Shown: positions 1 through 64,000, counted from the first letter of the stretch. The stretch is DNA of 64,000 nt from a virus (IMGVR_UViG_2974538492_000001:1-64000), one strand, 5' to 3'. Notes: generated from the sequence alone by a model not told the origin. Numbers and translations are program-made.

Positions 1-80
1 CTATAGATGGATAGACTTCTGGCAGTAAAGATGTTCAGATGGATAGACGTATAGACCTCCATACATCTAGATGGATATGT
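1..80 (+). repeat. Three iteron-like direct repeats of (c)agATGGATAGAC/ATGGATATG spaced about 33 nt apart at the window edge
   Basis: gATGGATAGAC at ~6-16 and ~39-49, gATGGATATG at ~71-80; regular ~3-helical-turn spacing; the array may continue upstream of the window. Confidence 0.4.
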
Positions 81-248
81 GTCTGGACGTTTAGACGGCT
101 AAACCGATTTTAGTCTCGATTTTCCATTAGTTCCCCTTCCGCGTCTAGAAAGTTCTAGGCAGAATCGAAAGTCGTCTTTTCGTGTTGACAGAGCTATATT
201 ATCAAATGGGGTTAATGATTGCAAGGACTTTTTTCAATAAAAATAAAT

Positions 249-278
249 TTGACATCTGATTATATAATGTAGTACTAT
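249..278 (+). promoter_or_regulatory. sigma70-like promoter TTGACA-N18-TACTAT feeding the inverted-repeat (IR) element
   Basis: tttGACAtctgattatataatgtagTACTATag; -35 and -10 hexamers with 18-nt spacer. Confidence 0.45.
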
Positions 279-280
279 AG

Positions 281-410
281 TATCAATCCAGCGAAATGGA
301 CTAACCCTATAGGGTGCCGAGATCCGCCTATTAATATATAAAAGCGAATGAGAATCATTACTAATTATAGTTATATTCCCGCACCCTCTAGGGTATCCGA
401 TTTCTCTCGT
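281..410 (+). repeat. IR-flanked structured leader element, copy 1 (left arm CCAGCGAAATGGACTAACCCTATAGGGTGCCGAGATCC, variable AT-rich core, right arm CCGCACCCTCTAGGGTATCCGATTTCTC)
   Basis: Near-identical to the element at 3284-3392; the arms are reverse complements of each other (outer gcgaaat/atttctc, inner ccctatagggtgc/gcaccctctaggg, 1 mismatch each); no plausible ORF. Confidence 0.6.
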
Positions 411-654
411 CTGAAATAATAATATCAAAGTACCGAATAGAATACAAGGATTATTTTTGATTTTTATGAAAATAGTTCAAATCGATTTATACGTATAAAG
501 GAAAGGATTTAAAAGGCGTACAAAAAAGCGGGGTGAATGTATAGCAGTACTATAGAAACGCCGTGTAATGGTTCCTATGCATTGTGGTGGTATGAATACG
601 CATATAAAGGAAAGAAACTTATATAAGGAAAGTATTTGCAATGAATGAAAGAAA

Positions 655-1035
655 GTACTTGCAAAGGTTTAAGGTTATGATACTATCTATTTCGCCAACA
701 AGGAAACGCTCTTTAACAACTTACCGGATGATTACTTGATAGTGATTCTTTACTTTAGAAATAAAGAAAAAGAAAAACGATAAAGTACTTGACGGCAAGA
801 AAGGAAAGTGTAGAATGTTGGTTATCGAAAGGCGGTCAGGTTCGCCGTATGATAGGTAAGGGTAACAGGGCAGAATACAGTACTGTTACAGAGTAGCCAG
901 AAGTGCTACTACAGCCTTATAAAAAGCTAACTAACAGTTAGTGACCTATTTACCGCCTAACGATATAACGAAAAAAGTTTCTAAGAAGTTGAAAAAAGTA
1001 CTTGACTGATAGAAGCAAAACATAGTACGATGTAT
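655..1035 (+). promoter_or_regulatory. Cluster of three tandem sigma70-like promoters upstream of the first gene
   Basis: aaagtacTTGCAAaggtttaaggttaTGATACT (~659-687); gtacTTGACGgcaagaaaggaaagtgTAGAAT (~789-816); gtacTTGACTgatagaagcaaaacatagTACGAT (~1002-1031); all share a GTACTTG extended -35. Confidence 0.45.
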
Positions 1036-1082
1036 CCAAGCCAAACGGCTAATATAACCTAAACTTTTAAGAGGAATTACAA

Positions 1083-1736
1083 ATGACTACTACTAACACT
1101 GCAAAAGTATCTCGTGTAACTTTGAACTCAATCATTTTCGCCACTGCTCCAGTACTGGCAGCACCAGCCGAAGGTGAGACTCACAGTAAAGAAGTAATTG
1201 CACAACACAAATCGTCAATTGCTGAATTTGTATCAAATCAGGGTAAAGAGTTGGCTGGTTTTATTTTGGGTAAAGTTGAAACGCCTGATTTGATTATCGC
1301 GATTATCAAAGAAGCGGCGAAACAAATTCCAGCAGTACAAAAGCAACTGGCAGATGAAGCGGCAGTAATTGCACTTCAAGCAGAAGAACAGCGTGTTAAA
1401 GATGCTGAAGCGGCTGAATTGAAGCGGAAACAGGATGAAGCAGCATTGCAAGCTGAAAAAGACAAAATGCTTAAATTGTTAACTGACGGCGGTTTAGATT
1501 TGGCAATCGCTCAAACAATGGTAGCGGCTGGCCTTAAAGCAAAAGCTCCAGCTAATTCACCAAAAAACAGTTATGAGCGTGTCGCGGTAACCGTTGACGG
1601 TAAAGGCTACGATGTTCCAGTGCGGGGCAACATGAGCGAAGAATTGAAAGCTCTGGTAGCTAAAGATGGCGGGGATCGTGATGCATTTATCGCAAAATAC
1701 CGCAACGAACCAGCCGCACAAGAAGTTACTGAATAA
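1083..1736 (+). CDS. Hypothetical Ala/Glu/Lys-rich protein, 217 aa; GC-richer than its neighbours
   Basis: Strong RBS aagaggaattacaaATG; long ORF with no recognisable catalytic motifs. Confidence 0.8.
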   Translation: MTTTNTAKVSRVTLNSIIFATAPVLAAPAEGETHSKEVIAQHKSSIAEFVSNQGKELAGFILGKVETPDLIIAIIKEAAKQIPAVQKQLADEAAVIALQAEEQRVKDAEAAELKRKQDEAALQAEKDKMLKLLTDGGLDLAIAQTMVAAGLKAKAPANSPKNSYERVAVTVDGKGYDVPVRGNMSEELKALVAKDGGDRDAFIAKYRNEPAAQEVTE

Positions 1737-1884
1737 TATCTCAGTACTGTAATAATAGGGGGCAAACCAGCCCCCTAAGCCGTTCTAATAGTATTTTAAT
1801 ACTAACGTGTTATAGTACTATTAGAAACGCTTAAAAGTCTTTATAGAGCGTTTTATCTTATATCTTAAGTAAGGATAAACGCTT

Positions 1885-2154
1885 ATGCAATTAACCCCAA
1901 TATCTAATTTAATTGATAAAAATACTCGCATCGCTAAAACGATGACAGCCATTAGCAGAACAACATCGGTTTTTAATGGTTATCTTGCTTTTGTTGTTAA
2001 TGGTGAATTAGTACAACGTAGGATCTATGACATGGCATATAATAGTTTATATGATTCGTGTATGTATATAGTTCACAAGAAAGTTAATTATGCCGTTAAT
2101 CTTCCCTGTAAGCCTATTAGCGGAGCGTTTAACGCTGAATCACTAAAGGCATAA
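1885..2154 (+). CDS. Hypothetical protein, 89 aa
   Basis: RBS taaggataaacgcttATG; followed by a rho-independent terminator. Confidence 0.4.
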   Translation: MQLTPISNLIDKNTRIAKTMTAISRTTSVFNGYLAFVVNGELVQRRIYDMAYNSLYDSCMYIVHKKVNYAVNLPCKPISGAFNAESLKA

Positions 2155-2165
2155 GGTAACATAAA

Positions 2166-2199
2166 AAGCCCGTTAGAATAGCTCTGACGGGCTTTTTTT
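2166..2199 (+). terminator. Rho-independent terminator
   Basis: aaaaAGCCCGTtagaatagctctgACGGGCTttttttat. Confidence 0.7.
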
Positions 2200-2213
2200 A
2201 TTTGTTGAAAGTA

Positions 2214-2242
2214 CTTGTATTATAATCTCAGTACTGTATAGT
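2214..2242 (+). promoter_or_regulatory. Early promoter of the GTACTTGTATTATAATCTCAGTACTGTATAGT type
   Basis: CTTGTA -35, 17-nt spacer, TATAGT -10; the same cassette recurs at ~3485 and ~4601. Confidence 0.5.
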
Positions 2243-2276
2243 AACCGTTATCGAAACAACTGACGGACACAACAAA

Positions 2277-2939
2277 ATGAATGCATTTAAGTTAGAGCAG
2301 TATAGAATGACTTTGGAAGTACTGGAACAAATGAAAGATTGTTTAGACCGTGGCGAGACTTATACCACTGTTAAAGGCAAGCCGTTCAACGTTACAAGGC
2401 AATTCGGTATTTGCTGGCACGTGTACGCTCATACGCCTAACCAGAACGTGACAGGGATCGGCACTGACTTTATGTGTCCTGCTTTTGCTGATATGGGCTT
2501 AGATATAGCGTATCCGGTGGAGTGTCAAACAACTGGCAGCCGCGATCAAATGCGTCAGGCATTCAGTGTACAGCGTAACATGTATGACGACAACACGATC
2601 CACGGTGCAAACCGGATCAAGCTGGTGGATTCACTGATCCAGTACTACCGCGAAAAGATGGAAACGCCGATCACTGTTACCATGTATGAACATTATTACA
2701 ATCAAGCCTTGACAGAAATGAAAAGGCGTGATTCAGCTAATGAAGCCGTATGGGATGTTTTGGATTTTGAGAACAATCAGATCTGGCGTGAACTGGCGTT
2801 AAAGATTGTTGACGAAGATCCTACACTGTCAGAAGTGGATCACGCTGCTGGTATTAACTACCCTGATGATCTAACGTTGGAAAATGTAGTTACTACTAAC
2901 TTACAGGAACGAATCCGCGAAGCATTAGAAAAGTTATAA
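2277..2939 (+). CDS. Hypothetical protein, 220 aa
   Basis: Long ORF downstream of a promoter; no motif recognised. Confidence 0.8.
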   Translation: MNAFKLEQYRMTLEVLEQMKDCLDRGETYTTVKGKPFNVTRQFGICWHVYAHTPNQNVTGIGTDFMCPAFADMGLDIAYPVECQTTGSRDQMRQAFSVQRNMYDDNTIHGANRIKLVDSLIQYYREKMETPITVTMYEHYYNQALTEMKRRDSANEAVWDVLDFENNQIWRELALKIVDEDPTLSEVDHAAGINYPDDLTLENVVTTNLQERIREALEKL

Positions 2940-2950
2940 TCTTTACAAAT

Positions 2951-2986
2951 AAGGGGTTGACGGTTCAATCCCTTTTATAGTACTAT
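2951..2986 (+). promoter_or_regulatory. PeSL-like cassette (imperfect hairpin aGGGGTTGAcggtTCAATCCCtttt containing a TTGAC -35, then a TATAGTACTAT -10 region)
   Basis: Matches the recurring hairpin-plus-promoter pattern seen at 4481, 9137, 9751, 11188, 11597 and 12111. Confidence 0.45.
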
Positions 2987-3017
2987 GTAATCACACCAAA
3001 CGAAAGGGGTTACATAA

Positions 3018-3233
3018 ATGAGATTAAGTGAGATTAGAAAAGTACTGAAGGAACTTAACAAGCTGGCGAAAGAATCGGGGAACCTCGATCCAGATATTAA
3101 GTTTTGGAGTGATGATATGGACACTGATTTACTATTAGAACTTTGTCCTGCTGATGATCTCAGTGATTCAGTACTGAAAAGCGGTAATATTCAAATAAGA
3201 TTGAATGAAGTACTTAACCCAAAAGTTAGATAA
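3018..3233 (+). CDS. Hypothetical protein, 71 aa
   Basis: RBS aaggggttacataaATG. Confidence 0.7.
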   Translation: MRLSEIRKVLKELNKLAKESGNLDPDIKFWSDDMDTDLLLELCPADDLSDSVLKSGNIQIRLNEVLNPKVR

Positions 3234-3246
3234 TCTTTACAATTGC

Positions 3247-3284
3247 GGGGGTTGACAGCCTCCGCTTTTTTATGGTACTATAAT
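3247..3284 (+). promoter_or_regulatory. Hairpin-embedded promoter TTGACA-N19-TACTATAAT upstream of IR element copy 2
   Basis: gcggggGTTGACAgcctccgcttttttatggTACTATAAT. Confidence 0.45.
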
Positions 3285-3392
3285 ATCAATCCAGAGAAAT
3301 GGACTAACCCTAGAGGGTGCCGAGATCCATCTATAGAAAATTTAGTCCTTAATAGATATAGTTCCGCACCCTCTAGGGTATCCAATTTCTCT
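3284..3392 (+). repeat. IR-flanked structured leader element, copy 2 (left arm CCAGAGAAATGGACTAACCCTAGAGGGTGCCGAGATCC, right arm CCGCACCCTCTAGGGTATCCAATTTCTC)
   Basis: Outer 7-bp stem (gagaaat/atttctc) and inner 13-bp stem (ccctagagggtgc/gcaccctctaggg) pair perfectly; the ~40-nt core differs from copy 1. Confidence 0.6.
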
Positions 3393-3444
3393 TGTATATA
3401 AGTATTGTACAGTACTGAGATTATAATTACAAGGGGTAAACAGA

Positions 3445-3514
3445 AATAAAAATTAAAATTAAAACGAAAAAAGAACTTGTATTATAATCTCAGTACTGTA
3501 CAATTCTCTATATC
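3445..3514 (+). promoter_or_regulatory. Early promoter module: UP-like tract AAAATTAAAATTAAAACGAAAAAAG, -35 AACTTGT, -10 TACAAT
   Basis: aaaattaaaattaaaacgaaaaaagaaCTTGTAttataatctcagtactgTACAATtctctatatcgaaaacgggag; a conserved module repeated across the window. Confidence 0.55.
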
Positions 3515-3532
3515 GAAAACGGGAGAAATGAT

Positions 3533-3988
3533 ATGAATTCAAAACAGTTCCAAGATGCAACAAGAGAAACATTTTTAAAGTACTTTCCTCATGGTCACAT
3601 AAGCATTTCTATGTTGGCAATAGGTGGTGGTTGTAATATCTTTTGTGGCTTGATTGGAGACATTAATGATGTAGGTGGTAAGATCCGCATGAATGATCCT
3701 GTAACGGTACGGGCTTATATTCATGATAACTTTTCATTTAATGATGAAAGTACTGAATTGGAAAACGTTGTTATTGAGTTCGATGGTTCGTGGATCTCAG
3801 TACTGCCAGACAATCCGCATCATTATTGTCAATCCCACAAGGTGCCAAGTCGCAAGATTAACGCAGAACCTAAAAAGGCATTAAGTAATTTGGATAAGTA
3901 CTTTAAACGATTAAAGGACTGTGTAACAGAGCAAGCAGGATTAAATCGCATTATTCAGCAGGATAAGATCCCAGCGAAATATCTATAA
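3533..3988 (+). CDS. Hypothetical protein, 151 aa
   Basis: RBS aacgggagaaatgatATG inside the conserved leader. Confidence 0.75.
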   Translation: MNSKQFQDATRETFLKYFPHGHISISMLAIGGGCNIFCGLIGDINDVGGKIRMNDPVTVRAYIHDNFSFNDESTELENVVIEFDGSWISVLPDNPHHYCQSHKVPSRKINAEPKKALSNLDKYFKRLKDCVTEQAGLNRIIQQDKIPAKYL

Positions 3989-3994
3989 TATATT

Positions 3995-4036
3995 GTCAAA
4001 AGTACTTGCATTGTATAAGCGAGTACTTTACAATAA
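3995..4036 (+). promoter_or_regulatory. Early promoter GTACTTGCAT-N17-TACAAT
   Basis: aaaagtacTTGCATtgtataagcgagtacttTACAATaag. Confidence 0.55.
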
Positions 4037-4063
4037 GTTATCGTTAATTGAGAGGATTCGAAT

Positions 4064-4474
4064 ATGTTACATGTTAAAGGTTTTTCTGAGGGTGGTTATT
4101 GCTTTATGATTGGTGATAAGCCTGTTTCTGTTGTTGAAGCATTGCAGAAAAATGGTAAGAAATTTAACAAGAATACATTAAACGCTTTAAATAGAAATAA
4201 TCTTGCTAATGAAAGCGATCTTGTGTCATTTGAGTTACAAGTACAATCATTACATAAAGGATTAACACCTGAATATGTAATTCAAATTTTACGCAATGAA
4301 TATAATATTGATTTTAATAATGATTTTCATGAGTTAAGTTCTGCCAGCGTACTGGATTTATTAACAGTATATCATATTGCACAATATCGAGCACCCTCAC
4401 CATGTAATCGTGATGGTTCGCCAATGCGTTATTTTTACCAGTACTTACAACGCTTCATAGAAAAGAAAAAATAA
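4064..4474 (+). CDS. Hypothetical protein, 136 aa
   Basis: RBS attgagaggattcgaatATG. Confidence 0.75.
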   Translation: MLHVKGFSEGGYCFMIGDKPVSVVEALQKNGKKFNKNTLNALNRNNLANESDLVSFELQVQSLHKGLTPEYVIQILRNEYNIDFNNDFHELSSASVLDLLTVYHIAQYRAPSPCNRDGSPMRYFYQYLQRFIEKKK

Positions 4475-4480
4475 TCAAAT

Positions 4481-4554
4481 AAGGGGTTGACTTCGGTTAA
4501 CCCTTTTTGCTATACTAATATTACTCCAGAGAAATGGACTAACCTTATAAGGTG
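4481..4554 (+). promoter_or_regulatory. PeSL-like cassette (hairpin aaGGGGTTGACttcGGTTAACCCCttttt with TTGACT -35, GCTATACT -10) followed by a solo left arm of the IR element (CCAGAGAAATGGACTAACCTTATAAGGTG)
   Basis: Hairpin plus 18-nt spacer plus TATACT; the arm lacks a partner right arm. Confidence 0.5.
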
Positions 4555-4566
4555 TATAAGTGTACC

Positions 4567-4629
4567 TATAATAAAATAATTAAAATTCATACAAAAAAGT
4601 ACTTGTATTATAATCTCAGTACTGTATAA
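4567..4629 (+). promoter_or_regulatory. Early promoter module (AATAATTAAAATTCATACAAAAAAGTACTTGTATTATAATCTCAGTACTGTATAAT)
   Basis: UP-like tract, CTTGTA -35, TATAAT -10. Confidence 0.55.
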
Positions 4630-4662
4630 TTCTTTATATCGAAAACAAACGAGGGTTTTTAA

Positions 4663-5085
4663 ATGAGAACATGTAAAGAGTGTGGGAACAATTGCAACGT
4701 ATTATCTAATGGTGTTGTCCATCATTACAACGAGGATGATAAAATTGATTATGATCTAGATGGGGATCATGTTGCAATACCTGAATTATCTGATTCTGAA
4801 AACAACATGTTAAATCCAATTCTTCAAAGTACTTTTAATTTTAATGGTGATGTTCCTTGTATTAACTACGCCGCGAATGGTGGAGGTTATGAAACTTACC
4901 AGTACTTCATTTGTGCTGATGGTGGATGTTTAGGAATTGGAACAGTAATTAATGAGTTTCATAAAGTAAACTTTAATGATCCTGATGATAAACAATGGCA
5001 CATTGTAGGGGTTGACGTGAATTATGAAAATACTAATCTGATAGATGATCACACAGGGGATTATATACCAGTAGCATATAGTTAA
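4663..5085 (+). CDS. Hypothetical Cys-containing protein, 140 aa
   Basis: Leader tatatcgaaaacaaacgagggtttttaaATG; CxxC at the N-terminus. Confidence 0.75.
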   Translation: MRTCKECGNNCNVLSNGVVHHYNEDDKIDYDLDGDHVAIPELSDSENNMLNPILQSTFNFNGDVPCINYAANGGGYETYQYFICADGGCLGIGTVINEFHKVNFNDPDDKQWHIVGVDVNYENTNLIDDHTGDYIPVAYS

Positions 5086-5093
5086 CACTACAA

Positions 5094-5117
5094 CGGGGAT
5101 CATTGATCCCCTTTTGA
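5094..5117 (+). terminator. Rho-independent terminator
   Basis: caacGGGGATCattGATCCCCttttgagg. Confidence 0.6.
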
Positions 5118-5123
5118 GGTTAT

Positions 5124-5384
5124 ATGAATTTGTTTTATAGTACTAGAAAATTAGTAGTTTCATTTGATTGTAATTCTGATAAAATACATTGTGTAATATA
5201 CAGAAAAGGAATTCCCCGTTCTGATAACTGGAAAGTACTACAATCCTATACAATCAAACGTAAAGGGTTTAAACAGTTAGATGACCGTACACAAAAGGCA
5301 TGTTTACGGCAAGTACTTAAAGCCATGCGTAACCGTATAACGCAAGCCTTACATGTTGCATTAACTACAAAAGATATTTTATAA
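5124..5384 (+). CDS. Hypothetical basic protein, 86 aa
   Basis: ORF directly after the terminator; RBS ttgaggttatATG. Confidence 0.6.
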   Translation: MNLFYSTRKLVVSFDCNSDKIHCVIYRKGIPRSDNWKVLQSYTIKRKGFKQLDDRTQKACLRQVLKAMRNRITQALHVALTTKDIL

Positions 5385-5400
5385 TATAATGAAAAAGTAC

Positions 5401-5429
5401 TGGACAATGCTCCGGTACTTTGTTATAGT
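5401..5429 (+). promoter_or_regulatory. sigma70-like promoter TGGACA-N17-TATAGT
   Basis: gtacTGGACAatgctccggtactttgtTATAGTact. Confidence 0.4.
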
Positions 5430-5477
5430 ACTTACATCGAAGAGAAATTCGAATAGCCCATAGGGTTCAGGGGTATA

Positions 5478-5542
5478 TCTATTAAAAATAATTAAAATTA
5501 AAATGAAAAAGAACTTGCATTATATTATGGTTATGGTAATAT
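5478..5542 (+). promoter_or_regulatory. Early promoter module (AATAATTAAAATTAAAATGAAAAAGAACTTGCAT-N17-TAATAT)
   Basis: UP-like tract, TTGCAT -35, then the conserved leader atcgaaacgggagg. Confidence 0.5.
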
Positions 5543-5570
5543 ATGTATATCGAAACGGGAGGTTAAAGAA

Positions 5571-5639
5571 ATGAAACTACGTTATCAATGGCTGTTGTTT
5601 GCTTTGTTTATCCTTATTACCTGCGTAAACTTTGATTAG
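5571..5639 (+). CDS. Tiny hydrophobic ORF (22 aa, MKLRYQWLLFALFILITCVNFD) directly behind the conserved leader
   Basis: Excellent RBS cgggaggttaaagaaATG; could be a leader peptide or a mini membrane protein. Confidence 0.3.
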   Translation: MKLRYQWLLFALFILITCVNFD

Positions 5640-5649
5640 GGGTTATATT

Positions 5650-5991
5650 ATGATGATTGTTAATTTTGGTGATGATATCAATTTCAATAGTATTAAGCAT
5701 ATTATTGAAAATAGTCAATCTGTATCTATTACTTTATGTTCTGGCGATGGTGATGATTTTACGGTGATAGAGCGTGAAAGAAGTAAATTTGCTGGTTTTC
5801 ATGAGGCTGATCTTATTGTTATTAGTACTGTACGGAATGCTAATGGTGATGGTATCTATGTATATCCTGAATACTTCACTATTGAACAGGCAGACACTGC
5901 TATTGAAGCCTTAAAAATAAGGGCGAGTGATACTAACATTAAATCATCTGAATTATCGGATTCATTAACTGATTTATTAGAATCGGAATAA
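5650..5991 (+). CDS. Hypothetical acidic protein, ~113 aa
   Basis: The ORF track starts at a TTG at 5632; the internal ATG ATG at 5650 follows ttaGGGGTtatatt. Confidence 0.55.
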   Translation: MMIVNFGDDINFNSIKHIIENSQSVSITLCSGDGDDFTVIERERSKFAGFHEADLIVISTVRNANGDGIYVYPEYFTIEQADTAIEALKIRASDTNIKSSELSDSLTDLLESE

Positions 5992-5994
5992 CAT

Positions 5995-6036
5995 ATTAAA
6001 AGTACTTGCATTATATTAGCGAGTACTTTATAATAA
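5995..6036 (+). promoter_or_regulatory. Early promoter GTACTTGCAT-N18-TATAAT
   Basis: aaaagtacTTGCATtatattagcgagtactttaTAATaag. Confidence 0.55.
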
Positions 6037-6056
6037 GTTATCAAGTGAGGTACACA

Positions 6057-6104
6057 ATGAAATGGTTAATTATAGCAGTACTGATTTACATTATCTTTTT
6101 TTAA
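6057..6104 (+). CDS. Tiny hydrophobic ORF (15 aa, MKWLIIAVLIYIIFF)
   Basis: RBS aagtgaggtacacaATG directly after the promoter; a second mini hydrophobic ORF like the one at 5571. Confidence 0.25.
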   Translation: MKWLIIAVLIYIIFF

Positions 6105-6123
6105 TCAAGAGGAAGTATTAAAA

Positions 6124-6333
6124 ATGGCACATAAAGATCGTCGTTACAATGTTAACCCTGAATTTACCGGACACGAATCAGGCAAGAAACAATTTGTTAT
6201 TCGTTTTTGTGGTGATTTTGTTTCTTCGCATTCAAAGCGTGATGAAGCAGAAAAAGAGATCGCCCGATGGAAAAGTACTGGAACCGTTCCACATATCGGA
6301 AAGCAATGGGATAATCTAGTTGAACCTGTTTAA
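6124..6333 (+). CDS. Hypothetical protein, 69 aa
   Basis: RBS caagaggaagtattaaaaATG. Confidence 0.7.
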   Translation: MAHKDRRYNVNPEFTGHESGKKQFVIRFCGDFVSSHSKRDEAEKEIARWKSTGTVPHIGKQWDNLVEPV

Positions 6334-6483
6334 TTAATCAATATTAATAGTACTGGATATTTCACCAGTACTGTTTTTTTATACAGCATAATATATAATA
6401 GATACATTTTCGCACCCTGTGGGTCAAAGACATTTCGCTGTCTATGAAGTAATAATACAGTATTTTGATATACGTGTCAAGGA

Positions 6484-6541
6484 TTAAATTAAAATTAAAA
6501 CAAAAGAAAGTACTTGCATTAAGTATGAAGTACTGTATAAT
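6484..6541 (+). promoter_or_regulatory. Early promoter module (AAATTAAAATTAAAACAAAAGAAAGTACTTGCAT-N16-TATAAT)
   Basis: UP-like tract, TTGCAT -35, TATAAT -10, then leader tatatcgaaacgggag. Confidence 0.55.
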
Positions 6542-6568
6542 CTTTTATATCGAAACGGGAGAATTAAA

Positions 6569-6835
6569 ATGAGTAACGCATTGAAAGCCATGATTTCGTT
6601 GGTAATTTCAGTACTGATAACCTTTATAATATTAACTGCGGCGAGAGATGATGTTCTGTGGCGGTTAACCATGTTAGGATATGAAATTGAAGATACATGG
6701 TATTCTTTTTTGACATATGGCCTTAATGGGATATATGCTATATTAATGGTAGGTTGTTTTTATATTTTGTTTTGTTTAATGTTTTATATTACAGGGGGCA
6801 GTAATGAGAGTACAACCAATCCAGCCAATCATTAA
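6569..6835 (+). CDS. Small membrane protein, 88 aa, 2-3 predicted TM helices
   Basis: Hydrophobic stretches LVISVLITFIILTAA and GIYAILMVGCFYILFCLMFYI. Confidence 0.6.
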   Translation: MSNALKAMISLVISVLITFIILTAARDDVLWRLTMLGYEIEDTWYSFLTYGLNGIYAILMVGCFYILFCLMFYITGGSNESTTNPANH

Positions 6836-6974
6836 GTTAGCGAATAGTACGGTCAAGAATGAATATTCAAAAATTGTTGTTGACATTCCGTGTAGTACTG
6901 TGGTATCATTAGGTTCTTACAAATCGTGTGATTTGTATAATTCAATTTATAAACAATAAAAGGTAAATTTAAAT

Positions 6975-7832
6975 ATGGGTAAGTTCATTAGTTATGGTAT
7001 TCTTGCGATTATTGTATTCGTTGGCTTGGGTGCATTGTTTGGTTCGTGGTACACGGTTGATCAGCAAGATCGTGGGGTAGTACTAACGAATGGTAAAATT
7101 ACCAGTATTGCAGAACCTGGTTTGAACTGGAAAATGCCATTTATGGATTCTGTTGTACAAATTCCAGTCACTGGACAAAATAAAAGTTATTCGAATCTAA
7201 AAGCATATAGCCGAGATCAACAACCGGCAGATATGACTATTTCTGTATCATTCTCAGTCCCAGCGGCTAAGGTAGGGGAATTATATAGTACTTTTGGTGA
7301 TATTGACAATCTAACTACTCGTGTTATTGATCGTCAAGTACCACAAGCTGTTGAAAATGTTTTTGGTCAGTTTAATGCGATTTCAGCAGTACAAGATCGT
7401 AATAAGTTAGTTACTAACTTAAACATTGCAATTAAAAAGGCAATGGAAAACTACCCAGTAGTAATTGAGAGTGTACAGGTTGAAAACCTATCATTCAGTC
7501 CAGCATATGAAAAATCAATTGAAGAACGTATGCAAGCAGAGATCGCAGTTACAAAGCGTGAACAGGACTATGCACAGGCTAAAATTTCAGCATCTATCAC
7601 AGTTGCGAATGCACAAGCTGACGCTGATAGCCAGTTAGCAAAGGCAACGGCAGCAGCTAAAGCAACACGCCTACAGGGTGAAGCTGATGCAGCAGCAATT
7701 AAGGCGAAGTCCGAAGCACTAAACAATAATCCACAACTTGTACAGTTGGCGGCGGTGGATAAATGGGATGGTGTACTACCTACTCAAATGGTTCCATCTG
7801 CTACAGTGCCGTTTGTGAATCTAAACAAATAA
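6975..7832 (+). CDS. SPFH/band-7 (prohibitin/HflKC-like) domain protein with N-terminal membrane anchor
   Basis: N-terminal TM (ILAIIVFVGLGALFG); ordered alternation of hydrophobic and charged residues typical of the SPFH fold; Ala/Gln-rich coiled-coil C-terminus (QAEIAVTKREQDYAQAKISASITVANAQADADSQLAKATAAAKA). Confidence 0.7.
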   Translation: MGKFISYGILAIIVFVGLGALFGSWYTVDQQDRGVVLTNGKITSIAEPGLNWKMPFMDSVVQIPVTGQNKSYSNLKAYSRDQQPADMTISVSFSVPAAKVGELYSTFGDIDNLTTRVIDRQVPQAVENVFGQFNAISAVQDRNKLVTNLNIAIKKAMENYPVVIESVQVENLSFSPAYEKSIEERMQAEIAVTKREQDYAQAKISASITVANAQADADSQLAKATAAAKATRLQGEADAAAIKAKSEALNNNPQLVQLAAVDKWDGVLPTQMVPSATVPFVNLNK

Positions 7833-7845
7833 GTACTATCACAAA

Positions 7846-7872
7846 AAGCCTCGCATTGTCGAGGCTTTTTAT
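7846..7872 (+). terminator. Rho-independent terminator
   Basis: aaaaAGCCTCGcattgtCGAGGCTttttatt. Confidence 0.7.
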
Positions 7873-7880
7873 TATCTGAA

Positions 7881-7937
7881 TAATTAAAATTAAAACGTAA
7901 AAAGTACTTGCATTGCATGAGCGAGTACTTTATAATA
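7881..7937 (+). promoter_or_regulatory. Early promoter module (AATAATTAAAATTAAAACGTAAAAAGTACTTGCAT-N18-TATAAT)
   Basis: Textbook copy of the recurring UP / -35 / -10 module. Confidence 0.6.
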
Positions 7938-7964
7938 CTTACATCAACCACAAGAGGCAACAAC

Positions 7965-8321
7965 ATGAAAACTGAATTTTTCGCGACAAGAACACTGGCA
8001 CGTAACGCGGTAGAAGCTCTTAATGGTAAGTTTAAAGATTTTGGTAAAGATGCTCCTACTGGTGAACGTTGGGGGGTGCTGGTGGATGAAGTACTACCAG
8101 TACAAAAGGAACAACCTGTACTTGCAGAAGAAAAAAGTAATCTTGACGTACACCTTGATTTTCTTAGTACTGTAGCAGAAGATGCAGCAAAAGCATTGAA
8201 TCAGCCAACTGGCATTCGTGGGGAACAAACGTTAACAACACCAAATAAGAAGCCTGTACGGGTTATGTGGCGTCGTTCAATTGTGGCGGTACGTTTGTCG
8301 GCACTACTGGCAAAATCGTAA
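7965..8321 (+). CDS. Hypothetical protein, ~118 aa
   Basis: The ORF track starts at 7908, inside the promoter; the internal ATG at 7965 follows RBS caagaggcaacaacATG and lies after the predicted transcription start. Confidence 0.65.
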   Translation: MKTEFFATRTLARNAVEALNGKFKDFGKDAPTGERWGVLVDEVLPVQKEQPVLAEEKSNLDVHLDFLSTVAEDAAKALNQPTGIRGEQTLTTPNKKPVRVMWRRSIVAVRLSALLAKS

Positions 8322-8332
8322 CACAAACCAGT

Positions 8333-8362
8333 GGGGGCGGTATAATGCCCCCTTTATTAATC
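8333..8362 (+). terminator. Hairpin terminator
   Basis: gtGGGGGCggtataatGCCCCCtttatt. Confidence 0.5.
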
Positions 8363-8370
8363 GAGATCAT

Positions 8371-8613
8371 ATGAAAAAAGTTAAAGTTGATAATACACAA
8401 TTACGCATACATTTCAAGGCACAAACAAAAGTACTTGATAAGGCTATTCGTATTGTGAAAGATTATAATAATGGAAGTGTTAGAGCTAGACGGTTAGGGT
8501 GTGGTTTATTTTCAGTAATAGATGTATCACATAACGAACGGATCGTTATTAAAAATAAAACACTTAATTTAATGACTCATGAACAATATAATAAATTCGT
8601 CGAACGACGTTGA
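8371..8613 (+). CDS. Hypothetical basic protein, ~80 aa
   Basis: The ORF track start at 8281 overlaps the previous gene and the terminator hairpin; internal ATG at 8371 (MKKVKVDN...). Confidence 0.45.
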   Translation: MKKVKVDNTQLRIHFKAQTKVLDKAIRIVKDYNNGSVRARRLGCGLFSVIDVSHNERIVIKNKTLNLMTHEQYNKFVERR

Positions 8614-8669
8614 CATAATCCCCTAAATATGTATAATAATAATTATACACGATTAGGGGATTTTTTATT

Positions 8670-9131
8670 ATGCCTGATAAATTTAAACATAAGAATGGTG
8701 CTACTATAGCAGGTCATGCCGATAAGTGGAGTGATGAAAATCGTTCAAGTACTAGCCATGATGCAGGTCAAGGCAGTAAAGGAAGTAGAAATCAAGGTAC
8801 AGGAATTAAAGGTAAACAAAACGCAATGCCATCACAAGGTATTGATACATCCAAAATGGATAAGTCCGAAAAATTAAAGTACTTTAATTCATTGGGTTTA
8901 CTTCAACCAAAACAAGAATTATCTATTAAAACATGGCCTGAAACATTACGCAAAGTGTTTAAAGATGAACCTGTATACATTAAAGATATTACTACAGCGA
9001 TAAAATCTATTGAACCAGCAAGATATCAACAAGCCATTCAATCAGCATTCAATGCTTATAACGAAATTACAAAACAATCAGATGATGTTTATGATATATA
9101 TGCCGCAATTATGCAAGCATTACAAGGTTAA
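8670..9131 (+). CDS. Hypothetical protein, 153 aa, Gly/Lys-rich N-terminal half
   Basis: ORF after the hairpin aatcccctaa...ttaggggatttttt. Confidence 0.65.
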   Translation: MPDKFKHKNGATIAGHADKWSDENRSSTSHDAGQGSKGSRNQGTGIKGKQNAMPSQGIDTSKMDKSEKLKYFNSLGLLQPKQELSIKTWPETLRKVFKDEPVYIKDITTAIKSIEPARYQQAIQSAFNAYNEITKQSDDVYDIYAAIMQALQG

Positions 9132-9136
9132 AAATA

Positions 9137-9170
9137 AGGGTTGACTTAGGTTAACCCTTTTGCTATTGTA
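9137..9170 (+). promoter_or_regulatory. PeSL-like cassette (aaGGGTTGACttaGGTTAACCCtttt GCTATTGT)
   Basis: Hairpin with embedded TTGACT -35 and an 18-nt spacer to a TATTGT -10-like hexamer. Confidence 0.45.
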
Positions 9171-9197
9171 TCAGTACACAAACATAAGGAATATATT

Positions 9198-9548
9198 ATG
9201 AAAAAGTTATTATTACTCGCTGCATTGTTTAGTACTACAGTTTCAGCTCAAACATTTACATGTGATAACTTTACTCTGTATCAAGGTATCGGGAATAATC
9301 AATACAGACAAGTAGATGATGCAGGTGTACAATCATCTTTGATTATTACTATTGAAAGTACTGAACCATTGATTACCGTTTCTGTACAAGGTGATAAAGA
9401 AGTAGTGCAATTCTGGAAAGATTATAATGTATACAGAAATGTAACTGGTGAAATTTCACAAGATGGTAATAATTTTATAATGAAAACAGCTATACAAGAT
9501 AGTACTGGATTTTATATACCTGTTAAAATTGAGTACCATTGTAAATGA
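9198..9548 (+). CDS. Secreted/periplasmic small protein, 116 aa, with signal peptide
   Basis: MKKLLLLAALFSTTVSA-QTF has the n-, h- and c-regions of a Sec signal; RBS cataaggaatatattATG. Confidence 0.7.
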   Translation: MKKLLLLAALFSTTVSAQTFTCDNFTLYQGIGNNQYRQVDDAGVQSSLIITIESTEPLITVSVQGDKEVVQFWKDYNVYRNVTGEISQDGNNFIMKTAIQDSTGFYIPVKIEYHCK

Positions 9549-9742
9549 AATTATCATTTCAATTTATGCAAAAACGTGTACAGTACTTAAGTACTAAACT
9601 TAAAGCATCATTTGAATTACAATATACTATTAACCAGAATTATCATTTAATGAAGAATGGAAGATTCATTGTTATGGATCAACCGCTTGAAGTACTGGAA
9701 ATAGTAGTAAGTGCATTATTAAGTAATAACATTAAAAAATAA
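9545..9742 (+). CDS. Hypothetical protein, 65 aa, overlapping the previous stop (ATGA)
   Basis: Translational coupling; modest coding signal. Confidence 0.45.
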   Translation: MKLSFQFMQKRVQYLSTKLKASFELQYTINQNYHLMKNGRFIVMDQPLEVLEIVVSALLSNNIKK

Positions 9743-9750
9743 TTAAATCA

Positions 9751-9822
9751 AGGGTTGACAGATGTTAACCCTTTTTGCTATACTACTATCAATCCAGCGA
9801 AATGGACTAACCCTATAGGGTG
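9751..9822 (+). promoter_or_regulatory. PeSL-like cassette (aGGGTTGACAgatGTTAACCCttttt GCTATACT) plus a solo left arm of the IR element (ATCAATCCAGCGAAATGGACTAACCCTATAGGGTG)
   Basis: TTGACA-N18-TATACT; the arm is identical to the 287-320 arm but has no partner. Confidence 0.5.
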
Positions 9823-9864
9823 TATAGTTATGTCAGTACTTTTATTATATGCATAGAAAAAAGA

Positions 9865-9917
9865 ATTTAAAATTAAAATGAAAAAGTACTTGTGTTAGAT
9901 GCTGGAACTGATAGAAT
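9865..9917 (+). promoter_or_regulatory. Early promoter module (AATTTAAAATTAAAATGAAAAAGTACTTGTGT-N17-TAGAAT)
   Basis: UP-like tract, TTGTGT -35, TAGAAT -10. Confidence 0.5.
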
Positions 9918-9947
9918 GTAGTTATTGAAACAACGGGAGTAAATGAA

Positions 9948-10187
9948 ATGGCTAATAAAGAAGTGGAATTTAAAATTAGAAAATGGTCAGATACTAACGG
10001 TCGTCCATTTGATGTAGTGCTGGTGGATCATTTAAAGAACAATCAGCATTTTCAGCCTAATGTTGAATTTAGTACTATCGAACATGCTGAAAAGCATATG
10101 GAAACTTTGAATACTTTAATTCAAAATCATCCTGACCGTATCAACTTTATTCGTGACCATTGGCCTGTTGATGCTGGTATAGAATAA
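9948..10187 (+). CDS. Hypothetical protein, 79 aa
   Basis: RBS aacgggagtaaatgaaATG. Confidence 0.75.
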   Translation: MANKEVEFKIRKWSDTNGRPFDVVLVDHLKNNQHFQPNVEFSTIEHAEKHMETLNTLIQNHPDRINFIRDHWPVDAGIE

Positions 10188-10237
10188 AAATTAAAACGTA
10201 AAAAGTACTTGACTATATCAGTTGAGTACTTTAAAAT
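10187..10237 (+). promoter_or_regulatory. Early promoter module (AAAAATTAAAACGTAAAAAGTACTTGACT-N17-TAAAAT)
   Basis: UP-like tract, TTGACT -35, TAAAAT -10. Confidence 0.5.
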
Positions 10238-10270
10238 AGAATCTTAATTAACGCAATAGGAAACTAAATC

Positions 10271-11164
10271 ATGAAAATGTACAAAGGCATCGCAGGTAAA
10301 GCAATCAAAGAAAACCGTCCACTGCTAAGATCAGAACTGGAATTAGTTGTTCCATCTATCTTTTCAAGTACTGGTCACGAATCACGTTCAGCCCGTTTTG
10401 CACCTGTTGCAACCATCGACGTTGTAGACCGTTTAGCAAAAGAAGGTTATCAACCATTCTTTGCTATTCAGTCCAATGTACGTGACGAATCTAAACGCGA
10501 ATTCACTAAGCATATGCTGCGTTTCCGTCAACATGATGGCAAAACATCCGGCGAATCTAATGAGATCATTCTCGTTAACGCAAATGATGGAACAAGTGCA
10601 TACCAATTAATGGCTGGTCAATTCCGTTTCGTTTGTGCTAATGGTCTGGTTATGGGTAACATGCAACATAACACAAAAATCTATCACAAAGGTAACAATA
10701 TCATGGATGACGTGATCGAAGGCGTCTATTCAGTAGTGAAAGATTTTGATAACATTGAACGTTATAAAGATGAAATGCAACTAATACAACTCAATGATAT
10801 CGAACGTAAAACGTTTGCAACTGCTGGTTATCTCATGAAAGAGGGTATGCCGGAATCAGGTTCAATGGATGACTTTGTATATAATCCATTACAACTATTA
10901 TCACGTTCAGGTCTAAACAGTCAAGACCAGTACGATAATAGTTTGTATAGTACTTTTAATACTGTACAACAACACTTAATCAACGGTGGTCAACGCTCAT
11001 TCATGGAAGATCGTAATGGTCGTACTCGCCGCCGGTCAAGCCGTAGCGTTACTAATATCAATAAGAACATTGATATCAATAGTAACTTATGGCAACTCGC
11101 TACCGCTCTGGTAGAGAAGAATACTAAGGTAGTGCATGATATCGTTGATGCACAATTAGCATAA
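10271..11164 (+). CDS. Hypothetical protein, 297 aa; a DUF932-type phage/plasmid protein is a possibility
   Basis: Long well-formed ORF with RBS aggaaactaaatcATG; family assignment is a guess from size and context only. Confidence 0.75.
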   Translation: MKMYKGIAGKAIKENRPLLRSELELVVPSIFSSTGHESRSARFAPVATIDVVDRLAKEGYQPFFAIQSNVRDESKREFTKHMLRFRQHDGKTSGESNEIILVNANDGTSAYQLMAGQFRFVCANGLVMGNMQHNTKIYHKGNNIMDDVIEGVYSVVKDFDNIERYKDEMQLIQLNDIERKTFATAGYLMKEGMPESGSMDDFVYNPLQLLSRSGLNSQDQYDNSLYSTFNTVQQHLINGGQRSFMEDRNGRTRRRSSRSVTNINKNIDINSNLWQLATALVEKNTKVVHDIVDAQLA

Positions 11165-11187
11165 AAAATAAGTACTAAAATCATATA

Positions 11188-11222
11188 AGGGGTTGACTTA
11201 GGTTAACCCCTTTTGCTATACT
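11188..11222 (+). promoter_or_regulatory. PeSL-like cassette (aaGGGGTTGACttaGGTTAACCCCtttt GCTATACT)
   Basis: The most canonical copy: 8-bp stem, TTGACT-N18-TATACT. Confidence 0.55.
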
Positions 11223-11252
11223 TATTTTATCGAAACAAACGAGGGTTAGTAA

Positions 11253-61903: not shown

Positions 61904-61917
61904 TGCTTCCTTTTTTC
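61895..61917 (+). terminator. Rho-independent terminator overlapping the stop codon
   Basis: aaGGAAGCtaatGCTTCCttttttcat. Confidence 0.7.
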
Positions 61918-61931
61918 ATAGAAGATATATA

Positions 61932-62756
61932 ATGAATTCAGATGAACTACTACTAGCTCGTAAACTTTTAAACAATTTAACTATTGAAAATAGAAATTTT
62001 ATTGTAACTCGTGACCTATCACGCGATATCCCTTCTTATGAAGATTGTAGATATCCATCACATTTAATTAGTTGGCTACATTTAAATAATTTATTAGTAC
62101 TGTTAAGTAGCTACCCAATTGATGATGATGAACGTTATTTTATTGAAATTTTTAAAATTACTGATTTGGGTAGTACTATTACATGGTTTACTGAATTACT
62201 TGAACAATACAATAAAGGAATGGATGGGGAACACGAATTTAGATATACAGGAAAATTATTGTATACTATATTACATAACTTCAATGAACTAGAAGTAGAC
62301 CCTGTTATTCAATTAATAACTGATGAAGAAAAAGAAGCATATCAACATTTTTACCGTACCCAAGTTTGGGATTCGACCGTTAAAGAAACAAAGACTTATA
62401 CACGTGAAGAAGCATTACAAACAATTGAATTTAATAAAGGTTTACTTTCTATGTTTGAAATGTCAGTACTTTTAGGTGCACGTGGTACAGATCCTACCCG
62501 TACAAATAATTATGTTTTCAAAAAATGTATGGAAGAATTGGGTGAAATGGCAGTAGAAGATCAAATTGAAAATGGTCTTTCATATAAAGATGCTGGCAGT
62601 GATGGTGTTGCTGGTGAAGCTGTAGATCTTGCAATTTGTGCAATGGATATGTTTGCCTTGCAGTATGGACATTTAAATCCAGAAGAAATTCAAGAGAAGT
62701 TTATCATTTATATGAATAAAAAATTAAACAAATGGAAAAATACTTTAGGAAAATAA
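61932..62756 (+). CDS. Protein with C-terminal MazG-like NTP pyrophosphohydrolase domain, 274 aa
   Basis: MEELGEMAVEDQIENG...EAVDLAICAMDMFALQYG resembles the MazG EExxE / ExxD metal-binding helices. Confidence 0.6.
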   Translation: MNSDELLLARKLLNNLTIENRNFIVTRDLSRDIPSYEDCRYPSHLISWLHLNNLLVLLSSYPIDDDERYFIEIFKITDLGSTITWFTELLEQYNKGMDGEHEFRYTGKLLYTILHNFNELEVDPVIQLITDEEKEAYQHFYRTQVWDSTVKETKTYTREEALQTIEFNKGLLSMFEMSVLLGARGTDPTRTNNYVFKKCMEELGEMAVEDQIENGLSYKDAGSDGVAGEAVDLAICAMDMFALQYGHLNPEEIQEKFIIYMNKKLNKWKNTLGK

Positions 62757-62757
62757 T

Positions 62758-63033
62758 ATGACGGATCATACAACAACAAAAGCATTAACTGATGTTTTAG
62801 CAGAAATGAATTCCCAAGATGAAAAATGGGGGGCTGACAGAAATCAACATCCATTTTTATGGCACGTAATTCTAAGTGAAGAAGTAGGGGAAGTTGCTCA
62901 AGCGATTTTACATGATGAATTTGGTGGTGACCATGCTGGTACTGCACGAGAAGAACTTGTTCAAGTCGCTGCTGTGGCCTTGCAAATCATTGAACAGTAT
63001 GATAGACTACAAAAAGAAAATGAGGAAAAATAA
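62758..63033 (+). CDS. MazG-like nucleotide pyrophosphohydrolase, 91 aa
   Basis: LSEEVGEVAQAILHDEFGGDH...ELVQVAAVALQIIE; all-alpha NTP-PPase signature. Confidence 0.7.
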   Translation: MTDHTTTKALTDVLAEMNSQDEKWGADRNQHPFLWHVILSEEVGEVAQAILHDEFGGDHAGTAREELVQVAAVALQIIEQYDRLQKENEEK

Positions 63034-63302
63034 TGATAATTCGTCCAGTACATAATCATATAATTGCAAAAAAACATATAAATGAACCTAAAAGTGCTGG
63101 CGGGATTTTATTAACTGCAAGTGGTGAAGATGAATCAACCCATGCTGAAGTGTTAGCAATTGGTTCTGCATTTAAAGGTAATGTAAAAGTTGGTGATATT
63201 ATCACATATAGTGATGATAAACGTGTTCATACTGAAAAAATTGAGAATGAATATCTATTAATTATGCCAGAAGATTGTGTACTGGCAGTTATTGAAAAAT
63301 AA
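63033..63302 (+). CDS. GroES-type co-chaperonin (T4 gp31 functional analog or GroES homolog)
   Basis: IRPVHNHIIAKK...SAGGILLTASGEDESTHAEVLAIGS...VKVGDIITYSD...EYLLIMPEDCVLAVIEK follows the GroES pattern (GGIvl...geVvAvG...VkvGD.V...yl.l.e.DilAv.e). Confidence 0.8.
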   Translation: MIIRPVHNHIIAKKHINEPKSAGGILLTASGEDESTHAEVLAIGSAFKGNVKVGDIITYSDDKRVHTEKIENEYLLIMPEDCVLAVIEK

Positions 63303-63311
63303 GGTTATACA

Positions 63312-64000
63312 ATGCATCCAGTACTAGTAGAATTACAAAATCGTGGTCTAATTAATCAAAGTACTGATATTTCAGTACTATCTTCTTTACTTGACAATGG
63401 CTCATCAGTGTATTGTGGATTCGACCCAACTGCTGATTCATTGCATATTGGCAGTCTATTACCACTAATGACTATGAAAGTACTAAAAGAATATGGTGTT
63501 AATGTTATTGCACTAGTTGGTGGAGCAACAGGTCGTATTGGCGATCCAAGTTTTAAAGCTCAAGAAAGAAAATTGCTTGATGAAGCTATGGTAGAACATA
63601 ATATTGCAGGTATTACAACACTAATTCGAAGTTTTCTTGGTTCTGATACAGTTATTGTTAATAATTTTGATTGGACTAAAGATCTTTCAGTACTTGACTT
63701 TTTACGTATCTATGGTAAATGTTTTTCTGTTAATACTATGATTTCAAAAGAATCAGTTCGTTCTCGTATCGAACGACCAGATCAAGGTATTTCTTTTACC
63801 GAATTTACTTATCCAATTTTACAAGGTATGGATTTTGAACATCTATATAATGGTGGATGTGCCATTCAGATTGGTGGGTCAGATCAGTGGGGTAATATGA
63901 TTGCCGGAACAGATCTTATTCACAAAATGCATGGAAATGACAAGCAATGTGGTGTTATAACACTTCCATTATTACTAAAATCTGATGGTACTAAATTTGG
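63312..64000 (+). CDS. tyrS: Tyrosyl-tRNA synthetase, N-terminal catalytic domain; truncated at the window end
   Basis: YCGFDPTADSLHIGSL (HIGH motif), VIALVGGATGRIGDPSFKAQERKLL, GISFTEFTYPILQGMDF, IQIGGSDQWGNM and LLLKSDGTKFG are near-identical in pattern to E. coli TyrRS; RBS ataaggttatacaATG. Confidence 0.9.
   Translation, partial: MHPVLVELQNRGLINQSTDISVLSSLLDNGSSVYCGFDPTADSLHIGSLLPLMTMKVLKEYGVNVIALVGGATGRIGDPSFKAQERKLLDEAMVEHNIAGITTLIRSFLGSDTVIVNNFDWTKDLSVLDFLRIYGKCFSVNTMISKESVRSRIERPDQGISFTEFTYPILQGMDFEHLYNGGCAIQIGGSDQWGNMIAGTDLIHKMHGNDKQCGVITLPLLLKSDGTKF

Follow-up and report, generated by a model that had tools for sequence, protein, structure and literature searches.

The palindrome AGTACT is held in large excess by selection on DNA in Yersinia phage fHe-Yen9-04 and other RaK2-like jumbo phages

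The stretch of DNA analyzed here, a window of 64,000 nucleotides (IMGVR_UViG_2974538492_000001:1-64000), corresponds, with 100% identity, to bases 1-64000 of Yersinia phage fHe-Yen9-04 (NC_042116.1, 354,378 bp, genus Eneladusvirus). This phage is a RaK2-like jumbo myovirus with 32% G+C, and nearly all of its genes are carried by the plus strand (>90% on one strand). The first ~20 kb of the window, the counterpart of the annotated 22,456-bp terminal repeat in the relative CBB, contain short early genes located downstream of strong sigma-70-type promoters. The subject of this work is the palindromic hexamer AGTACT, the recognition site of ScaI, which is found 254 times in the window (mean 4.0/kb) and is the most common hexamer there, followed by AAAAAT with 147 copies. 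Within genes, there are 209 of these sites, another 44 are intergenic, and one spans a gene boundary.

The original prediction, made from the sequence alone, held that AGTACT is greatly over-represented, and counting bears this out: dinucleotide-preserving shuffles of the window yield 16.7 copies (standard deviation 4.2, maximum 28). The counts then made by eye in sampled segments hold as well, with 9 copies in 3001-4000 plus one at 4001, 5 in 12241-12600 and 4 in 57001-58000. Markov models of order 0, 1, 2 and 3 predict 21, 16.5, 34 and 90 copies, respectively. The order-4 expectation is 207, but this null is unfair because T follows 254 of the 342 AGTAC pentamers (74%), that is, the hexamer itself makes the pentamer counts. 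The excess amounts to 15-fold in the window (254 vs 16.5) and 11.6-fold in 349 kb of the genome (968 vs 83 expected); the first 300 kb contain 818 copies, and AGTACT is the top hexamer genome-wide, too. The effect is specific to this one word. Among the NGTACN words of the window, AGTACA is present in 48 copies, AGTACG in 28, TGTACT in 20 and the remaining words in 0-34, so that a general excess of GTAC-containing words, which had been named as the outcome that would undermine the prediction, is ruled out. Of the 64 palindromic hexamers in the window, the second most enriched exceeds its expectation only 2-fold. One-base variants of AGTACT are at background when an inner position is changed (0.5-1.6x) and at 0.9-3.2x when an outer position is changed. 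The neighbors AGTATT and AATACT are not depleted, which rules out Vsr-like directed repair or a deamination sink.

As originally claimed, the hexamer occurs in all three reading frames as well as between genes: of the 210 genic copies, 96 are read as AGT-ACT, 77 as xxA-GTA-CTx and 37 as xAG-TAC-Txx, and the density in intergenic DNA is twice that in coding DNA (7.0/kb vs 3.6/kb). Synonymous shuffling within each gene, which preserves both the proteins and the codon usage, produced 46.5 sites per trial (200 trials, standard deviation 6.2, maximum 62) compared to the 210 observed, and a codon permutation null gave 21.5 genic sites. The same excess is apparent at individual peptide contexts. Ser-Thr dipeptides are written AGT-ACT in 96 of 140 cases (69%; 22.6 expected), x-Val-Leu contexts carry the hexamer in 77 of 116 cases (10.1 expected), and [Lys/Gln/Glu]-Tyr-x contexts in 37 of 88 (3.2 expected). 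The permissive dipeptides are themselves over-represented, with 140 ST vs 78 expected (80 for the reversed TS), 149 VL vs 103 expected (100 for the reversed LV) and 58 QY vs 31.5 expected. Thus, about two thirds of the opportunities permitted by the proteins are used, and the proteins are shifted to permit more. The codons involved are common (AGT, ACT and GTA make up fractions of 0.33, 0.48 and 0.47), and the synonymous shuffle, the codon permutation and the dipeptide tests rule out a codon-usage artefact. Taken together with the intergenic excess and with conservation at twice the level of controls (see below), these results uphold the earlier claim of selection at the DNA level, and support the conclusion that selection on DNA, not codon usage, maintains AGTACT, even at a cost to protein sequence.

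Along the chromosome, AGTACT is present at 2-3 copies/kb across the genome, including the blocks of structural genes on the minus strand, and reaches 6/kb in the first 20 kb (119 copies in 1..20000, the early-gene region). The fractions of synonymous opportunities used are 0.74, 0.74 and 0.62 in the first 20 kb vs 0.66, 0.63 and 0.34 in 20-64 kb. Outside the early region, the spacing is near random although slightly regular (mean gap 403 bp, coefficient of variation 0.87). The sites are evenly spread along gene bodies, with no positional bias, and no helical or other short-range periodicity was detected save for pairs of sites 20-21 bp apart in promoters. Polar guide motifs of the Chi or KOPS type are asymmetric and strand-biased, whereas AGTACT occurs at equal density in both gene orientations. 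A polarity signal, one of the functions proposed originally, is excluded given that a palindrome has no orientation. The sequences flanking AGTACT are nearly uninformative, which rules out a hidden longer repeat. The weak flank preferences detected over 832 sites are mirror-symmetric, with C favored and G disfavored at -1, T favored at -3/-4 and A at -8/-9; a shortage of GAG/CTC throughout the genome may underlie the -1 effect.

A minority of the sites are built into early promoters, and the AGTACT promoter contexts quoted in the original prediction are present. We identified seven plus-strand early promoters with two copies of AGTACT, 20-21 bp apart at fixed positions. At 2210..2242, the two copies are 20 bp apart (AGTACTTGTATT as the -35 region, AGTACTgTATAGT as the -10 region), and at 4001..4034, they are 21 bp apart (AGTACTTGCAT...AGTACTtTACAAT), with a 17-bp spacer between -35 and -10. 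The others are located at 4598..4630 (AGTACTTGTATT...AGTACTgTATAAT), 6001..6034 and 7903..7936 (both AGTACTTGCAT...AGTACTtTATAAT), 6509..6541 (AGTACTTGCAT...AGTACTgTATAAT) and 10204..10237 (AGTACTTGACT...AGTACTtTAAAAT). In these double-site promoters, the first AGTACT reaches into the -35 hexamer as far as its first T (AGTACTTGCAT), and the second stops one base upstream of the -10 hexamer (AGTACTnTATAAT). A single-site type, in which AGTACT abuts and overlaps the -35 hexamer, is represented by the plus-strand promoter at 997..1006 (aaaAGTACTTGAC), and further single-site promoters are found at 654, 784, 9885, 12223, 13077 and 13407. Overall, ~30 sites occupy a fixed position relative to -35 or -10 (23 AGTACTTG and 8 AGTACT-n-TAnAAT). 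About 12% of the AGTACT sites are promoter-associated, whereas ~88% are intragenic, without promoter context.

The AGTACT-flanked promoters could be read by the host sigma factor or by a phage sigma factor. The phage encodes an RpoD/RpoS-like factor of the sigma-70 family (g498, genome positions 332070-333062, outside the window) and, additionally, a DksA-like protein (g501) and a T4 gp55-like late sigma factor (g237). A repeated element of ~55 nucleotides lies 3' of promoter-like sequences on the plus strand at 255-350, 3258-3353, 4493-4588, 9761-9856 and 12121-12216. It contains the hairpin ACCCTATAGGGT, and compensatory changes (ACCTTATAAGGT) in the copy at 4539 suggest that a stem-loop, in RNA or DNA, is conserved; a search for Rfam families gave no match anywhere in the window.

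The early region also encompasses several genes with recognizable domains, namely, g012 (6975-7832), which encodes an SPFH/Band-7 protein (the homologue in CBB carries a structural annotation), g014 (8371-8613), with a ParE-like toxin domain, and g019 (10271-11164), with a DUF932 domain. The genes g024 and g025 (12597-13076 and 12760-13095) overlap nearly fully in different frames, and one of the two is probably spurious. They are followed, at 13555-19786, by about eleven genes arranged in tandem, each overlapping or abutting the next, whose products of 140-220 amino acids, judged by size and arrangement alone, resemble paralogues. Syntenic arrays are present in CBB, XbC2 and pEa_SNUABM_49.

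Comparison with Erwinia phage pEa_SNUABM_49, a member of the same genus (43.9 kb aligned, 81.8% identity), shows that 118 of 165 AGTACT sites (72%) are kept, in contrast to 36% for hexamers overall and likewise 36% for anagrams of AGTACT, which makes AGTACT the best conserved among the 175 frequent hexamers. The turnover is balanced, with 47 losses and 46 gains. Between genera, 35-69% of the sites are conserved vs 17-25% for all hexamers, and many sites are lineage-specific. As judged from these sequence comparisons, conservation combined with turnover is the pattern of purifying selection acting on many weakly selected, interchangeable sites; from the odds ratio at synonymous opportunities, we calculated a population-scaled selection coefficient of ~2.5.

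The trait is restricted to one clade of phages. AGTACT is strongly enriched in CBB (266 observed, 15 expected) and XbC2 (147 and 9) of the genus Mimasvirus, RaK2 of Alcyoneusvirus (92 and 8.8), phAPEC6 of Asteriusvirus (70 and 12) and the unclassified Xanthomonas phage XaC1 (123 and 12.4), and it is enriched also in two Eneladusvirus-like metagenomic contigs and in a Mimasvirus-like contig of 371 kb. Agrobacterium phage Atu_ph07 shows no excess (3 observed, 5.2 expected), and in Pseudomonas phage PA5oct (the segment at 100-140 kb), the hexamer is strongly depleted (1 observed, 11.3 expected), the opposite of the RaK2-like clade. Likewise, no AGTACT excess was found in ~60 environmental relatives of similar composition, with capsid proteins 64-70% identical, nor was there a substitute hyper-abundant palindrome in any of these. 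Therefore, the presence in RaK2-like genera and the absence from Atu_ph07, PA5oct and the ~60 relatives indicate a single origin at the base of the RaK2-like clade. A scan of IMG/VR for clusters of three AGTACT sites retrieved mostly coding repeats of tandem Ser-Thr; dispersed excess was found only in RaK2-like contigs and in one unplaced contig of 31.8 kb (IMGVR_UViG_3300011833_000042). In bases 1-9082 of this contig, AGTACT is the top hexamer, with 28 copies observed and 3.5 expected. The contig shares with fHe-Yen9-04 only a lysozyme/baseplate-hub domain (~48% identity), and no close relative was found among deposited phages; the trait may extend to an unsampled lineage. Two of the phages that keep the excess are recorded on Xanthomonas, so that a host factor specific to Enterobacterales is probably not required.

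The abundance of AGTACT coexists with a strong purge of other palindromes. Among the palindromic hexamers with four G+C, 14 of 24 have no copy in 349 kb, and neither does any of the 8 with six G+C; the corresponding share of non-palindromic hexamers of matching composition is 1.5% (median observed/expected 0.80). GCGC is missing from these 349 kb altogether (0 vs 144 expected). In the window, 27 of the 64 palindromic hexamers are missing; the purged words include CCATGG, TGGCCA, GCATGC, GGATCC and CTGCAG. A+T-rich palindromes are not avoided in fHe-Yen9-04. The purge of G+C-rich palindromes therefore points to heavy Type II restriction pressure on the phage, and the ~1,000 ScaI sites would have to be masked or modified during infection unless such enzymes are rare in the hosts. 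XaC1 keeps the AGTACT excess but lacks the purge of G+C-rich palindromes, and the trait is therefore independent of restriction avoidance. We further observed that the E. coli Chi octamer (GCTGGTGG) occurs in the window eight times on the plus strand (2621, 8078, 10019, 11466, 12240, 12744, 28538 and 31977) and once on the minus strand (26026), with ~0.2 expected. Six of these copies are within 2621-12744, in the probable terminal repeat, and their orientation would face RecBCD coming in from the right-hand end.

The original prediction also raised the possibility that AGTACT is the target of one of two encoded DNA methyltransferases; the window has two, g080 and g050, and fHe-Yen9-04 as a whole at least six. 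For g080, a putative DNA methyltransferase (39746..40591, plus strand), this part of the prediction fails: matches of >=99% are limited to three fHe-Yen9-04 records, all others being below 60%, and an enzyme confined to this phage cannot account for a trait present in five genera. Two other candidates were rejected as well, namely, g147, a methyltransferase confined to the genus, and g241, which has homologues in the non-enriched Atu_ph07 and no match in the syntenic 41-kb region of phAPEC6. The remaining candidate, g050 (25729..26268, plus strand; PF05869, TIGR01712), is a phage Dam-family N6-adenine methyltransferase; of the methylases found, it alone is represented by homologues across all the AGTACT-rich genera tested. 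The g050 family is widespread, however, with members at equal similarity in small Gram-positive phages. No relative of g050 with a solved structure was found, named families gave no clue to its specificity, and nothing links it to AGTACT. Characterized members of this family are GATC-specific or non-specific.

Several features of AGTACT point to the kind of factor that reads it. The strict palindrome, the symmetric flanks, the indifference to orientation and the sites located upstream of transcription starts indicate a symmetric factor reading duplex DNA; because only 64 of the 4096 hexamers are palindromic, a sharp 6-bp palindrome by itself points to symmetric duplex recognition. The population-genetic pattern suggests that the function depends on the density of sites along the whole chromosome. 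A 50-kb sample of E. coli DNA contains only 3 AGTACT (0.06/kb, or ~1 per 16 kb); the ~50-fold higher density in the phage would make a reader of AGTACT strongly selective for phage DNA. The trait follows the phage phylogeny and persists in the phages recorded on Xanthomonas, among them XaC1 with its lack of palindrome avoidance, which favors a reader encoded by the phage.

The explanation we favor, with a probability of roughly 0.4, is that a clade-specific phage protein binds AGTACT, marks or coats the phage chromosome, and regulates early promoters as an operator binder. The excess goes back to the ancestor shared by the RaK2-like jumbo phages, and selection on duplex DNA keeps each genome at ~1,000 copies. 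Under this scenario, every copy would be recognized by a protein of two-fold symmetry that the clade encodes and that would bind rather than modify its target. With a site every 250-400 bp, as against ~1 per 16 kb in the E. coli sample, such a protein could selectively occupy the phage chromosome. Occupied sites might then give unmodified phage DNA a sequence-encoded identity that would serve protection, compaction or discrimination between self and host. Early promoters would be regulated by this protein through operator binding, with one site abutting -35 and the second in the spacer just upstream of -10, two helical turns apart. A more far-reaching version, which we consider unlikely, is that RaK2-like phages, which lack hypermodified bases, instead mark self purely by sequence, through the ~1,000 AGTACT sites read by a dedicated phage protein.

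Several points weigh against the binding-protein explanation. A phage DNA-binding or DNA-modifying factor, as proposed in the original prediction, is still the best reading of the data, but the search turned up no candidate AGTACT-binding protein: the 20 early proteins scanned had no recognizable DNA-binding domains, the only domains detected being SPFH, ParE-like and DUF932, with the other 17 proteins giving no Pfam match. A strict, flank-free 6-bp palindrome is less usual as the site of a transcription factor than as that of a restriction or modification enzyme. The raised density at the genome end could stem from weaker coding constraint in that region. Furthermore, the host density comes from a single 50-kb sample of E. 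coli rather than from the natural host Yersinia, and the assignment of XbC2 and XaC1 to Xanthomonas hosts is taken from database records.

The strict form of the palindrome makes a reading based on modification nearly as good. Under this possibility, which is doubtful although the least so among the alternatives, AGTACT would be the target of a phage DNA modification, Type II-like methylation or a bulkier one, and the modified sites rather than a bound protein would be functional, perhaps as a mark of self or a block to host nucleases. In form, AGTACT resembles the targets of Type II restriction-modification systems (it is the ScaI site), and in a genome that purges palindromes, ~1,000 restriction sites would be a liability unless protected. 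The phage has methyltransferases to choose from, including g050 with its homologues in every AGTACT-rich genus tested, and RaK2 DNA has been reported to be cleaved by methylation-insensitive enzymes only (PMC3622015). However, protection accounts for tolerating AGTACT, not for a 12- to 15-fold enrichment, and the distribution of the enzymes fits poorly, with g080 and g147 lineage-specific, g241 shared with the non-enriched Atu_ph07, and the g050 family found in small Gram-positive phages. Considerably less likely is that AGTACT is used by a replication, recombination or DNA-processing enzyme which has to enter or stop often, on whichever strand; the hexamer could be an orientation-independent Chi-like attenuator of a helicase-nuclease, a preferred cleavage site of the phage topoisomerase II (A|GTAC|T, with a 4-base stagger) or a primase start site. 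The uniform, slightly over-regular spacing chromosome-wide, whatever the gene orientation, would fit such a role, as would the density peak in the terminal 20 kb, where canonical Chi also clusters, and genes for a T4-type replisome, gp46/47, topoisomerase II and a RecB-family exonuclease are present in the phage genome. This explanation leaves the fixed promoter positions unaccounted for, and we know of no enzyme of these classes that needs a strict hexamer; known Chi sites are asymmetric and read on single-stranded DNA, and known primases read trinucleotides.

We see still less support for a host protein, nucleoid-associated or involved in division control, that binds AGTACT and is titrated or exploited by the phage. 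All well-characterized carriers infect Enterobacterales, and the relatives on Pseudomonas and Agrobacterium lack the trait; the excess, however, is kept in XbC2 and XaC1, which are recorded on Xanthomonas. An example of such a protein is SlmA, whose 12-bp consensus, GTGAGTACTCAC, has an AGTACT core. SlmA binding or titration was rejected: every site has at least two flank mismatches, the sites match the consensus no better than by chance, and G at -1 or C at +1 is under-represented (0.36x). There is only a slim chance that the motif acts in RNA, as AGUACU, in processing, stability, antitermination or pairing between copies. Nearly all of the DNA is transcribed, with >90% of the genes on one strand, and a palindrome appears in transcripts either way, but an RNA signal does not need palindromy, many intergenic copies lie upstream of -35/-10 and thus outside the transcript from that promoter, the density in minus-strand blocks is equal, and there is neither a within-gene bias nor an Rfam family in the window. 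That AGTACT has no function at all, being a by-product of codon usage, of mutation or repair bias, or of an amplified repeat, we consider hardly credible. AGT, ACT and GTA are indeed common codons, and a Markov model of maximal order nearly absorbs the count (207 vs 254). Nevertheless, the synonymous shuffle yields 46 sites vs 210, the one-mismatch neighbors are not depleted, the flanks vary from copy to copy, conservation is twice that of anagram controls, the dipeptides are skewed, and ~60 relatives of similar composition show no excess.

Among described phenomena, HIP1 (GCGATCGC) of cyanobacteria comes closest to AGTACT (Xu, Lawrence and Durand 2018, PMC5861425). Both HIP1 and AGTACT are short perfect palindromes over-represented on the order of 15-fold or more (for AGTACT, 15-fold in the window and 11.6-fold in 349 kb), both occur within and between genes and in all frames, and both are conserved beyond background, indicative of selection rather than neutral replenishment. 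For neither has a gene-level role been found, and a chromosome-level role is suspected for both. The differences are that AGTACT is a 6-bp, A+T-rich word carried by a virulent jumbo phage, whereas HIP1 is an 8-bp, G+C-rich word of a cellular chromosome, and that AGTACT is much denser (a site per 250-400 bp), is built into promoters at fixed positions, and coexists with strong avoidance of other palindromes. Thus, AGTACT is an analogue of HIP1, not HIP1 itself, given that the sequence and the carrier differ. Chi, KOPS and DNA uptake sequences resemble AGTACT in comprising many weakly selected, interchangeable copies genome-wide, but they are asymmetric, 8-12 bases long, strand-biased and far sparser. 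The targets of ScaI and its isoschizomers are identical to AGTACT in sequence, as strict contiguous 6-bp palindromes, but phages normally avoid restriction targets, whereas AGTACT is enriched 12- to 15-fold, and the analysis identified no cognate enzyme.

The mechanism we propose might have functional analogues in p6 of phi29 and TF1 of SPO1, abundant phage proteins that prefer phage DNA, coat the chromosome and repress early promoters near the genome end. However, p6 reads bendability and TF1 reads hydroxymethyluracil DNA, and neither recognizes a defined hexamer. We found no description of the AGTACT motif in the literature searched, which included the papers on CBB, RaK2 and Sharanji and comparative studies of jumbo phages, with the subscription-only description of GAP32 outside the search.

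Avoidance of short palindromes is well known in phages and pronounced in this genome; its most common hexamer is nevertheless a palindromic restriction site. Selection that fixes two thirds of the synonymous opportunities and skews dipeptides implies a genome-wide DNA-reading system that has gone unrecognized in a well-sampled phage group, some members of which, on Klebsiella, E. coli, Cronobacter, Erwinia and Yersinia, are candidates for therapy. The function of the highly iterated palindromes of cyanobacteria is unknown after decades, and the RaK2-like phages offer a tractable model for such elements, with a small genome, a clear phylogenetic on/off boundary and simple assays. AGTACT is also a compact signature of the clade in metagenomes, and it matters for engineering or recoding these phages. 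If the more far-reaching version of our interpretation, a mark of self by sequence alone, were correct, AGTACT would be a sequence-encoded counterpart of the hydroxymethylcytosine of T4, and would enable these phages to discriminate their own DNA from that of the host for host-DNA destruction, nuclease protection, transcription switching and packaging.

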